Of a DNA stretch of 64,000 nucleotides, positions 14,569 through 19,001 are shown piece after piece. Under the pieces are notes generated by a model, which saw nothing but the letters and a program-made list of their open reading frames with translations, did no database searches and was not told the origin of the DNA. Both the position numbers and the translations under genes were made by a program. Each line of letters begins with the position of its first letter. Position 1 is the stretch's first letter. The stretch is from Candidatus Latescibacterota bacterium (GTDB taxonomy: Bacteria > Latescibacterota > UBA2968): NCBI GenBank assembly GCA_965204375.1, contig OZ241986.1, positions 1,632,001-1,696,000 on the forward strand, given 5' to 3'.

Positions 14569-15081
14569 GTGGATTTAATGGGCTTTATTCGCGATGTGCC
14601 CGATTTTCCCAAAGCGGGCATTTTGTTTAAAGATATTACGCCTCTGCTCGGCGATGCGGATGCGCTTCGCGCGGCGATAGAACGACTGGCGCAACCCTAT
14701 CGCGATGGGGCTGTCGATCTGGTTGTGGGAATCGAGTCGCGTGGTTTTATTTTTGGGACTGCACTCGCGCGAGAACTCGACGTGGGCTTTGTGCCGATCC
14801 GCAAACCCGGCAAACTGCCAGCAGATGCGATTTCTGCGAAATATGAATTGGAATACGGAACTGATAAGATTGAGATACACACAGACGCAATCGCCAAAGG
14901 ACAAAAAGTCGCGATCGTGGATGATTTGCTGGCGACCGGTGGCACAATGGCTGCTGCGTGTCAGCTCGTATCTGAACTCAAAGGGAAAATTGTCGGTATC
15001 TCTTTTGTCATAGAACTGGGCTTTTTGAACGGGCGCGAAAAACTCGGGGATTGGCCCATTCACAGGCTGGTTCACTATTGA
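14569..15081 (+). CDS. apt: adenine phosphoribosyltransferase
   Basis: PDFPK.GILFKDITP, IRKPGKLP, LEYG, VDDLLATGGT. Confidence 0.96.
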   Translation: MDLMGFIRDVPDFPKAGILFKDITPLLGDADALRAAIERLAQPYRDGAVDLVVGIESRGFIFGTALARELDVGFVPIRKPGKLPADAISAKYELEYGTDKIEIHTDAIAKGQKVAIVDDLLATGGTMAAACQLVSELKGKIVGISFVIELGFLNGREKLGDWPIHRLVHY

Positions 15082-15094
15082 TATTATCATATGT

Positions 15095-15132
15095 GCCCCT
15101 GTAGCTCAGAGGATAGAGTAGCGGATTCCTAA
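15095..15132 (+). tRNA. tRNA-Arg(CCU) 5' exon (positions 1-38)
   Basis: GCCCCTG TA GCTC AGAGGATA GAGT A GCGGA TTCCTAA: acceptor 5' strand, D arm with A20, anticodon CCT. Confidence 0.93.
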
Positions 15133-17576
15133 GTGCGCCGCTTCACGGTAGGAGTTCCTACCCAGTAACTGGGTATGAGTTGCAGGATAACTCGTAGATT
15201 AACCGATTCACTGAAATCTGAAAGGAGGAAGGGAAAACAGCATATCGGTAAAGCTGGTGGACAGGACAACCACAAAGAATGTCGCACTGGCAAAATCTGT
15301 ATCCTATGATTAAGGCTAAACTGCTTGAACCTCAACAACCAGTGGGAGAAAACCCGCCTCCTCTTGGAAATGTGGTTGACACCAAGACCTCACAAGATTC
15401 TGAAAGGATTAGGAGTTCAGAATACCTGACAACGTGGGCACGACTTGCAGAGAGCGAGTATAAGGTAGTGAATGAGGAATCTAAGGGATACTAAACGGAA
15501 CTCAGACACGGAAAGCGGGAATACCTAAGTGTCGAGAGACATAAGGTATCGGAGCCTCCGTAGTAGTCAGAGAACGGGAAAGCCGTTTACAAGGCGAAGG
15601 GAGGCAGGTAAGTTCGACTGTAAGGACAAGGAGGGATGCGTAATGCAAACAGCCAAAACTGTTCTTGAGGTCATCCATCGAAGGGGAATGGAAGGTAAAA
15701 CGCTTGAAAGGCTTTACAGGCAATTGTTCAACGAAGAGATATACCTGAAAGCGTATGCGGAAATCTACTCAAACAAGGGTGGATTAACCAGAGGTATTAG
15801 TAAAGAAACGATTGATGCAATGTCAGTTAAACGTATTCATAGCATCATAAAACGTCTCCGAACTGAAACATACCGATGGAAACCAACACGCCGAGAGTAT
15901 ATCCCAAAAAAGGACGGCAAAAAGAGACCACTTGGAATCCTCTCTGGGGACGACAAGATACTCCAAGCTGTTCTTAAAACCCTGCTTGAAGCCTATTATG
16001 AACCGCAATTCAGTGACCGCAGTCACGGATATAGACCGAATAGAGGCTGCCACACAGCACTTCAACAAATTGGTAGAAAACACCATACGGTCAGTTGGTT
16101 CATAGAGGCAGATATAAGAGGCTGCTTTGATAACATCGACCACGACATCTTAATTGATATACTGAGCGATAAAATCAAAGACGGAAGGTTTATACGACTT
16201 CTCAAACATCTTATGAAAGCAGGATATGTTGAAGATTGGAAATGGCATAAGACATATAGCGGAACACCGCAAGGTGGCATCATAAGCCCGCTTCTGTCAA
16301 ACATCTACCTGAACGAATTAGATATATGGGCAGAGAAAGAACTTATGCCAGAATACAATCGTAAGCCAAAAAGCGGTAGGAAGAAAATGAACCCTGAATA
16401 TAAGCGATATGCCTATAAAAGAGGCAACGCCAAAAAGCAGGGCGACTGGAAATCCTACAAACATTACGGAAATCTGATGAAATCACTTCCAACAACGATA
16501 GAAGATGATAACTACCGAAAATTGGAATATATCAGATACGCCGATGACTTTCTGTTAAGTTTCGCTGGCCCTAAAAAGGAAGCTAACGAAATCAAAGAGA
16601 AGATCAGGAATTTTCTCAAGGATAGATTAAGACTTGACCTATCATTGGAAAAAATCCTAATCACTCACGCCAGAACCAAAAAAGCCAAATTCCTGGGATA
16701 CGATCTGCGAGTCAGACAATCACGGGAAAGGCGAGTAGCAAATGGATCAATATGGTTCGGGACACCAACAGAGAGCAAGTTGAGAGCCATAAAGAAATAT
16801 AGGGAGAAAAACAAGGCGAAAGTAAGATTTGAACTGGTCGAACTGAGTGACTATGATATAGTAACGCAGTATCAATCAGAATACAGAGGTCTTGCGAACT
16901 TCTACGTAATGGCTCACAACAGACATACCTTAAACAAAGTAAGGTGGGAAGCGGAAAAATCCCTAATACGGACACTTGCAAGAAAGCACCGAACATCGGT
17001 CAAAAAAACCTATATAAAATATAGGGGCAAGATGAACGGTCATGCGGTGATAAAGGTGCAAGTAGAAAGAGAAGGGAAAGACCCACTAACCACATACTTT
17101 GGAGGAATTTCCCTGAAGAGAAACCCATACGTAAAGTCTATAAAAGACGAGTACACGAACAATTGGATCAAAAGAAGTCAGCTTATAGAGAGACTACTGG
17201 TAGACCAATGTGAAATGTGCGGACAAGTGGGGAATATCGAAGTCCATCACGTAAGAAAGCTAAAAGATGTGAACATACCGGGAAAGAGGAACAAACCCGC
17301 TTGGGTGCATCGAATGGCAGCTATCAGACGTAAAACTCTGATGACCTGCGTAAAATGTCATAAGGCAATACACGCAGGTAAACACCTTACGGAATGGGAT
17401 GTATGGAAGAACTTACTGGAGAGCCGTGTGCATTGAAAGGTGCAAGCACGGTTCGGAGGGAGGGTGCAGGAAAAGTGACCTAAATCCGTTTTGGTTTGAC
17501 TACGATGGAGCTAATATAGCTCTCTAGTGGACAACCAAAACGGCATTAGGTCAAACTCGCTTGCTCCCTACCCTAC
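15133..17576 (+). mobile_element. group IIA intron (Ll.LtrB-like) inserted in tRNA-Arg(CCU)
   Basis: 5' GTGCG at 15133; domain V GAGCCGTGTGCATTGAAAGGTGCAAGCACGGTTC at 17421-17454; bulged A17570 at position -7; 3' end CCCTAC at 17576; removing it restores a full cloverleaf. Confidence 0.93.
15643..17436 (+). CDS. ltrA: group II intron-encoded protein (RT, maturase X domain, HNH endonuclease)
   Basis: LYRQLFN...AY..IYSNKG, RPLGI, SHGYRPNRGCHTA, WFIEADIRGCFDNIDH, GTPQGGIISP, YIRYADD, CEMCG..IEVHH..CVKCH..IH; ATG after GGAGG. Confidence 0.95.
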   Translation: MQTAKTVLEVIHRRGMEGKTLERLYRQLFNEEIYLKAYAEIYSNKGGLTRGISKETIDAMSVKRIHSIIKRLRTETYRWKPTRREYIPKKDGKKRPLGILSGDDKILQAVLKTLLEAYYEPQFSDRSHGYRPNRGCHTALQQIGRKHHTVSWFIEADIRGCFDNIDHDILIDILSDKIKDGRFIRLLKHLMKAGYVEDWKWHKTYSGTPQGGIISPLLSNIYLNELDIWAEKELMPEYNRKPKSGRKKMNPEYKRYAYKRGNAKKQGDWKSYKHYGNLMKSLPTTIEDDNYRKLEYIRYADDFLLSFAGPKKEANEIKEKIRNFLKDRLRLDLSLEKILITHARTKKAKFLGYDLRVRQSRERRVANGSIWFGTPTESKLRAIKKYREKNKAKVRFELVELSDYDIVTQYQSEYRGLANFYVMAHNRHTLNKVRWEAEKSLIRTLARKHRTSVKKTYIKYRGKMNGHAVIKVQVEREGKDPLTTYFGGISLKRNPYVKSIKDEYTNNWIKRSQLIERLLVDQCEMCGQVGNIEVHHVRKLKDVNIPGKRNKPAWVHRMAAIRRKTLMTCVKCHKAIHAGKHLTEWDVWKNLLESRVH

Positions 17577-17611
17577 TCCGTTGGTCGCAGGTTCGAGTCC
17601 TGCCAGGGGCA
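17577..17611 (+). tRNA. tRNA-Arg(CCU) 3' exon (positions 39-73; CCA not encoded)
   Basis: TCCGT TGGTC GCAGG TTCGAGT CCTGC CAGGGGC A: pairs with the anticodon and acceptor stems of exon 1. Confidence 0.93.
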
Positions 17612-17615
17612 CTTT

Positions 17616-19001
17616 GAGGTATATTCAAAAGTTGTGGATGAGTAAAAGAAAAGAGCGTATCCTATAGTATCACAAAAACCTAAAATCCCTCCAGGAGGGA
17701 GAAAGGACACGCTCGTGAAAGAATATACCCCATTTGAAGTGGAAAGCATAGTGCAAGATACACTGGCCGAGAGCCTCGAAGAAGTCATAAGAAATGGTGC
17801 GCGTAAGATGTTATGTGCCGCCTTGCGGTATGAAGTGAATGAATACATAGCCCGATTTGCTGATCAGGTGGATGAAAAGGGTCATCGTGAGGTGGTCAAA
17901 AATGGGTATCATCCTGCCCGAGAAGTCACCACTGGTATTGGTAAAATACCCGTCAAACAACCCCGCGTTCACGATCGTCGAGACGGGGAGCACTTCACCA
18001 GTGCGATCCTGCCTAAATATGCCCGTCGCAGTCCGAGCATTGATACATTGATCCCCACACTGTATCTGAAAGGGGTCTCTACCTCAGCCTTTCCCCAGGC
18101 ACTCGAAGCGATCCTCGGCAAAGGCGCACCAGGGCTTTCACCAGCCAATATCACGCGCTTAAAGCGTATTTGGGAAGACGAGTATAAACAATGGCAAAAG
18201 CGCGACTTGCACGATAAAGCCTATGTCTATATCTGGGCAGACGGTATCTATTTTAACGTACGCCTGTCTGATGATCGCCCCTGTGTTCTCGTGCTCATTG
18301 GTGCCACAGCAGAAGGTAAAAAGGAAGTCCTTGCCATAGAGCAGGGACAGCGTGAGAGCACCTTATCTTGGAAAACCCTCTTACTGGATGTCAAAGCACG
18401 CGGGTTGCGCCTTGCCCCTGCTCTTGCCATAGGCGATGGGGCAATGGGCTTCTGGCACGCATTGGAAGAGACATTCCCTGCCACGAAACATCAGCGCTGC
18501 TGAGTGCATAAGAGTGCTAATGTGTTGGATAAGCTACCCAAATCTGTGCAGCCGGATGCCAAGAGACTCCTTCAAGATATGTATCAGTCGCCGACAAAAG
18601 AGGCCGCGCACAAGGTCTATGACCACTTCTTGAGTCTGTATCAGGATCGCTATGAAAAAGCCTGTGACTGCCTCACCAAAGATTTTGAGGTGCTCTTCAC
18701 CTTTTATGATTTTCCTGCCAAACACTGGATCCATTTACGCACCACCAACCCGATTGAATCGACTTTTGCTACCGTCAGGCATCGCACGAGGCAGACAAAA
18801 GGCTGCGGATCGGTCAAAGCCACAATGGCGATGGTGTATAAACTGGCTCTTGAAGCTGAAAAAACATGGGTCAGATTACGCGGTTACAAGCTCATACCCC
18901 TCGTCATTGACGGGGTGAAATTCGTAGATGGTGAACGCAAAATCGCTGCATAATCATAAAGGATGCGTTCTAAACCCATCCACAACATTTGACAATATCT
19001 C
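17616..19001 (+). mobile_element. IS256-family insertion sequence with 9-bp target duplication
   Basis: Left end GAGGTATATTCAAAAGTTGTGGATGAGT versus reverse complement of right end GAGATATTGTCAAATGTTGTGGATGGGT; GGGCACTTT at 17607-17615 and 19002-19010. Confidence 0.92.
17715..18953 (+). pseudogene. IS256 transposase with one in-frame TGA (18501-18503)
   Basis: NGY..R...TGIG, LYLKGVST, IWADG, IGDG, QRC*VHK (normally QRCWVHK), RTTNPIES; both parts are in the same frame. Confidence 0.9.

Follow-up and report, generated by a model that had tools for sequence, protein, structure and literature searches.

Here, we report that the tRNA-Arg(CCU) gene of a Candidatus Latescibacterota bacterium, a sponge/coral-associated organism with a complete genome in one contig of 6.34 Mb, is split by an insert of 2444 nt that has the ends, the catalytic hairpin, the exon-recognition sequences and the encoded protein of a group II intron. 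That the insert is a genuine group II intron, and that the gene it splits is the genome's sole tRNA-Arg(CCU) gene, we regard as very nearly certain. The locus lies in a stretch of 64,000 nucleotides (positions 1,632,001 to 1,696,000 of contig OZ241986.1), which we call the window and whose own numbering is used below. The intron, IIA-like in its features, occupies positions 15133..17576 on the + strand; it is single-copy in the genome by blastn, and its G+C content is 43.5% against 50.8% for the genome. An initial description made from the letters alone (the sequence-only reading) had placed here a tRNA-Arg cloverleaf split between positions 38 and 39 by 2444 nt. The split can indeed be read directly, and the joined exons and an intron-aware tRNA prediction both agree with it.

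The 5' exon (15095..15132, + strand; 38 nt, tRNA positions 1-38) covers the 5' strand of the acceptor stem, the D arm, the 5' strand of the anticodon stem and the entire anticodon loop, TTCCTAA, with which it ends and after which, in the sequence as read, GTGCG follows at 15133. The 3' exon (17577..17611, + strand; 35 nt) is preceded by CCCTAC, starts TCCGT and supplies the 3' strand of the anticodon stem, the variable loop, the T arm, the 3' strand of the acceptor stem and the discriminator A; CCA is absent from the encoded sequence. Joining 15095-15132 to 17577-17611, as the sequence-only reading had advised, gave a script-made sequence that ARAGORN folds into a canonical 74-nt tRNA-Arg(cct) cloverleaf with the anticodon CCU, and ARAGORN with its long-intron option returns tRNA-Arg(cct) i(39,2444). 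The same intron-aware search made four further long-intron calls across the genome, none with group II borders; these we took as false positives for that reason, and they mean that intron-aware ARAGORN is insufficient evidence when it stands alone. Default ARAGORN finds 0 tRNAs across the 64-kb window and the Rfam tRNA model has no match there even at E<=1, so the expectation that standard annotation would miss the gene proved right.

No other tRNA-Arg(CCU) gene exists in the genome: the second copy that we looked for is not among the 53 tRNA/tmRNA calls, in which, for Arg, only the anticodons acg, ccg, tcg and tct appear. A C34 isoacceptor exists for most other split codon boxes, and without the interrupted gene only Arg(CCU) would stand out as a gap. 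AGG is in ordinary use: in 3000 long open reading frames (ORFs) it accounts for 4.7 per 1000 codons and for 7.1% of those for Arg. The sequence-only reading had concluded that AGG decoding depends on the split gene; this it need not do, as a tRNA-Arg(UCU) gene is present.

The borders of the intron were taken from the empty sites of relatives. The 5' exon sequence is present, with 0-3 mismatches and in most cases identical, in 39 of the 41 genomes searched (the window's own included), and the remaining two gave no match to it. One locus was examined in each of 38 relatives, 19 of them of the same genus; a second place in one genome (G026; 3 mismatches) stands outside the 38 loci compared. At all 38 loci the 5' exon runs directly into TCCGTTGG with no insert, and the contiguous tRNA-Arg(CCU) gene of these relatives has the same sequence as the two halves in the window, or very nearly so. 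Many of the same-genus loci also share the upstream flank, which is the end of an apt-like gene. Relative to the empty sites the insertion has caused neither duplication nor loss. Thus, with the gene uninterrupted in 38 of 38 relatives, the insertion is precise, recent and lineage-specific.

The arrangement also occurs in independent material. Runs containing the stretch come from 10 studies, the majority of them metagenomes of sponges and corals; four of these runs were compared. In a DNA run from a sponge (X5), a 2504-nt contig covers 15103-17606 with 3 differences (99.9% identical) and reaches across both junctions, with 30 nt of tRNA at either end; the run also has intron-less alleles. Misassembly, which the sequence-only reading had named as the finding that would remove its claim, is therefore not the source of the intron-in-tRNA arrangement.

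What makes the insert a group II intron? Its 5' splice site carries the consensus GUGCG (15133..15137, + strand), with the same GTGCGCCG start in related introns, and its 3' end closes with CCCTAC at 17576, so that both ends follow the GUGYG/AY pattern. The Rfam model of domains V and VI (RF00029) matches 17419-17576 over its full length (1-77) with 60.5 bits against a cut-off of 40. Domain V (17421..17454, + strand) is a catalytic hairpin that starts at GAGC and has a 2-nt bulge, as seen in the Rfam alignment, by regular expression and in the minimum free energy (MFE) fold. Domain VI (17457..17574, + strand) is unusually long: in the MFE fold its distal part contains an extra, inserted hairpin of about 60 nt; in the same fold A17570 is bulged in the stem 7 nt from the intron 3' end and is the branch-point candidate. 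These are the ends, the domain V and the A at -7 on which the sequence-only reading had relied, and all of them were borne out. The tails that follow domain V in relatives are about 63 nt long, so that domain VI of the window intron is about 60 nt longer; most relatives are without the hairpin insertion (window 17480-17550), and one metagenome relative (L232) has a different insertion at the same place. The Rfam models for group II domains D1-D4 find nothing in the window, also at E<=1; the domain I of a related intron from a Caldilineaceae genome (L442), to which we return below, gives a good alignment with that of the window intron. No group I intron family matches the window either at the Rfam gathering threshold or at E<=1, and with no group I core in these searches the reading as a bacterial tRNA group I intron was rejected.

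The 5' exon holds intron-binding site (IBS) 2 (GCGG, -12 to -9) and IBS1 (TCCTAA, -6 to -1). The candidate exon-binding site (EBS) 1, TTAGGA (15409-15414), pairs with IBS1 at six of six positions, and the delta sequence directly before it, GGA (15406-15408), pairs with +1 to +3 of the 3' exon (TCC); together these 9 nt (15406..15414, + strand) are the exact reverse complement of the ligated junction TCCTAA/TCC. EBS1 lies at intron position 277, as against about 275-280 in relatives, and in most relatives read by eye the 3' exon begins with a pairing partner for the base 5' of EBS1. A candidate EBS2, CCGC (15354..15357, + strand), pairs with GCGG of the anticodon stem and lies at about intron position 219-225, as in relatives with known exons. 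With delta directly 5' of EBS1 and no separate EBS3, the recognition would be of the IIA type.

The intron-encoded protein (IEP) points the same way. Its ORF (15643..17436, + strand; 597 aa) lies in domain IV, is uninterrupted, has a GGAGGG ribosome-binding site close upstream of its ATG and encodes reverse transcriptase (RT), X/maturase and HNH domains (Pfam RVT_1, 2.7e-37; Intron_maturas2, 2.2e-12; AI2M-like_HNH, 2e-12), which bears out the intact RT-X-HNH ORF noted from the letters; the RT motif YADD is present in the translation. LtrA is by far the best match in the PDB (E 4.6e-117, residues 5-576), with the RTs of IIB and IIC introns matching at 1e-39 or weaker. The protein and its intron thus appear to belong to the IIA or mitochondrial-like (LtrA-type) class. 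With its YADD RT, its HNH domain and its precise insertion, the intron would be a mobile retroelement whose retrohoming parts are intact.

The sequence-only reading had also suggested that the flanks of IEP homologues be inspected for tRNA halves. In 185,579 species genomes (a collection that may omit the window's own genome) the IEP relatives reach 54-55% identity at best, and ARAGORN, run both with the intron option and without it, detected a tRNA in 0 of 79 loci in genome contigs. Among metagenome contigs the highest identity was 49%, there was no close copy of the window intron, and one of 80 loci (L232) lay in a tRNA gene. Most of the relatives sit in protein-coding genes (for example at a helicase-like GEMGTGKTF site) or in other introns. 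The exact 15-mer of the 5' junction was found in 83 stretches of the 185,579 species genomes, 0 of which were tRNA junctions; all were chance matches.

The closest full-length relative is the IEP of the Caldilineaceae intron (L442; 55% identity), which likewise splits a tRNA-Arg(CCU), at 40/41, two bases further than the 38/39 of the window. The EBS1 loops are one base apart (GGATTAGGAG in the window, GGTTTAGGAG in L442) and both complement the CCU anticodon loop, with the pairing registers shifted by 2 nt, which is the shift of the splice sites. In a quick maximum-likelihood tree of 46 IEPs, the window intron, L442 and a third intron (L001) form a clade at SH-aLRT 100 that is unresolved inside, and the tRNA-resident introns need at least three to four origins; all non-tRNA rows of this tree were chosen as relatives of the window intron. 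The nearest full-length relative has a homologous EBS1 loop and resides in the same tRNA species in another phylum, which makes it probable that the anticodon arm of the tRNA is the natural homing site of this intron lineage and not an accidental landing place.

Several other relatives were of note for where they reside. In another Latescibacterota genome (L068:2448-6471), a related intron with 67% nucleotide identity sits in an ssb-like gene, after the codons for KVLLIGNLGSDPETR, and its IEP region is broken by about 1.66 kb of extra DNA; as a partial 66% match it had been a candidate for a tRNA-resident relative, which its ssb-like host gene led us to reject. Three loci of Dehalococcoidia (L007, L008 and L033) hold intron copies in tandem, with a 3' end directly abutting the next 5' end, and two metagenome loci (L201 and L277) show a twintron-like nesting, with introns that follow a YYEPQ-coding site within another intron's RT gene.

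The window locus is not a one-off: public genomes hold at least ten further bacterial tRNA genes with group II introns. A scan for an intron 3' end motif with a T-loop motif 8-30 nt further on gave at least 119 stretches, in counts that are lower bounds and no frequencies, the pattern favouring one 3' end motif and one T-loop. Among the matches listed, a domain V motif lay just upstream of the tRNA 3' half in 13 of the 119, and 10 of these 13 were resolved as split tRNA genes by intron-aware ARAGORN and script-made joins; in the other three (L425, L445 and L462), domain V and a tRNA-like 3' half are present and no join gave a tRNA within the locus examined. The resolved introns split Arg(UCU) at 36/37 in a Prochloraceae cyanobacterium (L401) and in a member of the Chloroflexota (L406), Leu(UAA) at 34/35 in Oscillochloris (L412), and Ser(UGA) at 38/39 in Marivita (L436). 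Besides the Caldilineaceae gene, Arg(CCU) is split at 36/37 in Anaerolineales (L421) and in Chloroflexaceae (L440; an ORF-less intron of 689 nt), and after nt 22-23, in the D arm, in three Poribacteria loci (L384, L467 and L472). In all four genomes tested, RF00029 hits above the cut-off lie directly before the tRNA 3' halves. The occurrence of such introns in tRNA genes of other bacteria (Cyanobacteria, Chloroflexota, Alphaproteobacteria and Poribacteria) lends functional plausibility to the window case. The D-arm junction of Poribacteria occurs in 5 of 121 sampled genomes of the phylum, which is sporadic, and on this count we rejected fixation of the intron there.

One of these cases bears on codon reading. 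In the metagenome-assembled genome (MAG) of the Prochloraceae cyanobacterium (G044), 35 Rfam tRNA hits include only ACG and CCG for Arg, and the split tRNA-Arg(UCU) is the only AGA/AGG decoder detected in this incomplete MAG, with 150 of 384 candidates scored. In addition, the tRNA-resident metagenome relative (L232:90-2748, on a contig of 2819 nt) splits tRNA-Leu(UAA) at 34/35 and has an IEP 46% identical to that of the window. Just upstream of the IEP ORF this intron carries a second, complete tRNA-Leu(UAA) with an encoded CCA (647-734), which looks like a spare copy of the interrupted tRNA.

In light of these findings, how might the window intron have arrived and how would the tRNA be made? 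A retromobile IIA intron with an LtrA-like RT-X-HNH protein would have retrohomed into tRNA-Arg(CCU), a gene present once, precisely at 38/39. Transcription would then give a pre-tRNA of about 2.5 kb, either by read-through or from a promoter in the end of the apt-like gene, for which the evidence is weak: 8 nt separate the tRNA from a promoter-like site (TTCACA, 17 nt, TATTAT, with TG; 15059..15087, + strand), which lies within the 3' end of the apt-like phosphoribosyltransferase gene upstream (Pribosyltran domain) and matches the consensus at 10 of 12 positions, with three such sites found in the region against 5.4 expected by chance. The IEP, translated from its own ribosome-binding site, would bind the intron; EBS1 with delta (GGATTAGGA) and EBS2 (CCGC) would base-pair with the 5' exon, in its anticodon loop and stem, and with the opening bases of the 3' exon; and A17570 would attack the 5' splice site, with release of a lariat and ligation of the exons. 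End trimming by RNase P and other enzymes and the addition of CCA would complete a normal tRNA-Arg(CCU). Judged from the parts read in the sequence, it is reasonably probable that the intron splices and that tRNA-Arg(CCU) is made, and the account of retrohoming and splicing as a whole is one that we favour with some reserve.

Transcripts were sought in RNA-library runs, as the sequence-only reading had proposed. Contigs that lie on the intron come from three of them (X16, X17 and X18), two of the X17 contigs being 100% identical; this is compatible with transcription, DNA carry-over being possible. The exact 15132/17577 joint is present in one contig of X17 (72 nt, depth 98.6), which is without strain-specific sequence, and in one of X18, which has 12 differences in the apt flank and hence comes from a relative. 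As relatives share an identical tRNA, with intron-less alleles in the same samples, the joints are no proof of splicing; the junction that had been looked for is there, but it is not assignable to this strain. Coverage gaps over the stretch in the RNA runs were not counted as evidence.

A number of observations weigh against a spliced and functional tRNA at a natural homing site. The exon-exon joints of X17 and X18 are ambiguous, not being distinguishable from the tRNA of intron-less relatives, and RNA libraries may carry DNA. The EBS2 pairing holds at only four of six positions. With an insertion as young as its absence from 38 of 38 relatives makes it, the intact exons are no proof of selection. 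An IS256-like insertion sequence (IS) with a Mutator-family transposase (17616-about 19003; 7 copies in the genome) begins 4 nt after the tRNA and replaces the T-rich tail found there in relatives, and the genome evidently tolerates mobile-element insertions at the tRNA locus. L001, the third member of the clade, lies outside tRNA genes, which shows that the lineage can retarget. Finally, tRNA-Arg(UCU) could cover AGG by wobble.

The main rival reading is that the intron, having landed by retrotransposition, splices poorly or not at all, so that the gene is in effect knocked out, tRNA-Arg(UCU) reads AGG and the disruption persists only because it is recent and cheap. The absence of the insertion from all relatives, the tRNA-Arg(UCU) gene, the incomplete EBS2, the loss of the T-rich tail to the IS and the lack of an unambiguous spliced product in the RNA-library contigs all agree with such a dead end. 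Against it, the 597-aa IEP and every catalytic and recognition element are intact; the 9 nt of EBS1 and delta show no mismatch to the junction; a related intron whose EBS1 loop is homologous has its place in the same tRNA species; an independent sample yielded the same allele at 99.9% identity; and a C34 tRNA is kept for nearly every split box, which would leave Arg(CCU) as a conspicuous gap. We consider the dead end unlikely, although it deserves to be taken seriously.

The functional retroelement that we favour has two other competitors. The locus could be a domesticated system like that of plastids, with a fixed, immobile intron whose IEP is chiefly a maturase under host control, as matK is for trnK. 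The anticodon-arm site, the maturase domain and the IIA-like character, which trnK intron 1 is also said to have (PMC4424553), are what one would expect of it; the full RT with YADD and the HNH endonuclease have been retained, however, the intron is absent from all 38 relatives examined, its G+C content is foreign, and a comparable intron in Poribacteria shows, with 5 of 121 sampled genomes, the sporadic pattern of a mobile element. Domestication is thus highly improbable, and the distribution contradicts it. A chimeric join in the assembly between the tRNA locus and an intron from elsewhere would have its best argument in the tRNA halves, which are repeats in metagenome graphs and at which the contigs in the runs break. 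Against a genome in a single 6.34-Mb contig, an independent 2504-nt contig across both junctions and borders that match the group II consensus ends and the empty site of relatives to the base, such an artefact is extremely unlikely.

Group II introns in bacterial tRNA genes have apparently not been described so far. A full-text literature search gave no report of one; supplements and the curated group II intron database, which may list tRNA hosts, lay outside that search. What follows on earlier work holds for the portions of the five articles cited. In these, the tRNA introns of bacteria are of group I (PMC4033280), only group I is mentioned for bacterial tRNAs (PMC8450103) and interrupted bacterial tRNA genes were surveyed for group I introns only (10.1101/2020.01.27.920355); tRNA is mentioned as a host of group II introns for plastid trnK only, most bacterial group II introns lying outside housekeeping genes (PMC4424553), and the plastid tRNA group II introns known from streptophytes were joined by an intron in florideophyte trnMe (PMC3607583). 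Together they agree with the statement of the sequence-only reading that the described bacterial tRNA introns are mostly of group I and that group II introns in tRNAs are characteristic of plastids.

The sequence-only reading had called the locus a bacterial parallel to trnK/matK, of which the type of host gene stands and the rest does not. Like plastid trnK(UUU)/matK of streptophytes, the window intron is of IIA type, lies in the anticodon region and encodes a protein with an X domain (PMC4424553), and as there the tRNA would be obtainable only through splicing. MatK has lost RT motifs 0-4 and its mobility, serves several introns and is stably inherited (PMC4424553), whereas the window IEP is a complete RT-X-HNH protein, its intron is absent from 38 of 38 relatives and its host is a free bacterial genome of the Latescibacterota, neither a cyanobacterium nor a plastid. 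With a complete RT and endonuclease and a distribution that is not fixed, the window intron falls outside the definition of a domesticated maturase. Florideophyte plastid trnMe offers a likeness in another respect, as a tRNA missed by annotation with a GTGYG-type intron in the anticodon loop that carries an RT/maturase ORF; that intron comes after anticodon position 36, and its presence is conserved across the five florideophytes examined (PMC3607583), unlike the lineage-specific intron at 38/39 of the window.

With the group I introns of bacterial tRNAs the window intron shares a conserved, always-transcribed anticodon loop as its site, membership of a self-splicing class and a sporadic occurrence (PMC4033280; 10.1101/2020.01.27.920355). 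It differs from them in ribozyme class, in a lariat in place of attack by guanosine, and in retrohoming by an RT in place of homing by a DNA endonuclease. The window element would instead work like a mobile LtrA-type IIA intron, its likeness to trnK/matK being a loose one of host gene type only. The resemblance to Ll.LtrB and LtrA of Lactococcus lactis extends to a full-length IEP match, EBS2 and EBS1 with an adjacent delta, and an ORF in domain IV. Ll.LtrB resides in the relaxase gene of a conjugative element, in contrast to the chromosomal tRNA gene that is the target here, and the window intron further departs from it by the insertion of about 60 nt in domain VI. A group I intron in alphaproteobacterial tRNA-Arg(CCU), the same tRNA species, is reportedly the subject of work by Paquin et al. 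in 1999. Bacterial introns in housekeeping genes, mostly of cyanobacteria and of the chloroplast-like (CL) and mitochondrial-like (ML) lineages, likewise have a conserved host gene and a need for efficient splicing; the hosts named for them are protein-coding genes only, unlike the tRNA host of the window (PMC4424553).

Two further mobile-element features of the genome deserve mention. The IS256-like copy next to the tRNA, the only one of the copies examined for this, has its transposase frame broken by an in-frame TGA (18501-18503; QRC*VHK), at a position where the family usually has Trp. Elsewhere in the genome, a second group II-like RT gene (C1:3937675-3939342, - strand) is 40% identical over 585 aa; with no RF00029 hit and no canonical domain V by regular expression, it was rejected as a copy of the window intron. 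The sequence directly upstream of it ends in a motif that resembles the end of a CRISPR repeat.

The locus is a tRNA group II intron in the style of organelles, here in a free bacterial genome, and it appears to be one case of a wider class that annotation overlooks. More tentatively, and with confidence that stops a little short of even, we suggest that bacterial tRNA genes are regular, overlooked homing sites of group II introns, that the IIA lineage of the window reads the anticodon loop of tRNA-Arg(CCU) and moves between phyla that share sponges (Latescibacterota and Caldilineaceae), and that three to four or more independent lineages have settled in Arg(CCU/UCU), Leu(UAA) and Ser(UGA). 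Since tRNA genes split by group II introns of 2-3 kb are invisible to default ARAGORN and the Rfam tRNA model, genomes and MAGs that hold them seem to have no decoder, here for Arg(CCU) and in the Prochloraceae MAG for every AGR decoder found.

The effect on this particular cell may be small if tRNA-Arg(UCU) covers AGG. For the intron family, bacterial examples with EBS loops fitted to anticodon arms would be a new natural target class, and for the study of splicing they would offer a tractable bacterial model of maturase-dependent tRNA maturation. The cases in a cyanobacterium and in co-habiting sponge symbionts put two questions within reach of a test: did the tRNA introns of plastids have forerunners in bacteria, and are conserved tRNA sequences landing pads across phyla? 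If our reading is correct, maturase-assisted group II splicing would be obligatory for the maturation of a bacterial tRNA wherever the split gene is the only decoder, and the bacterial cases would be the free-living counterpart, and possibly the source, of the group II introns that plastids have in their tRNA genes.

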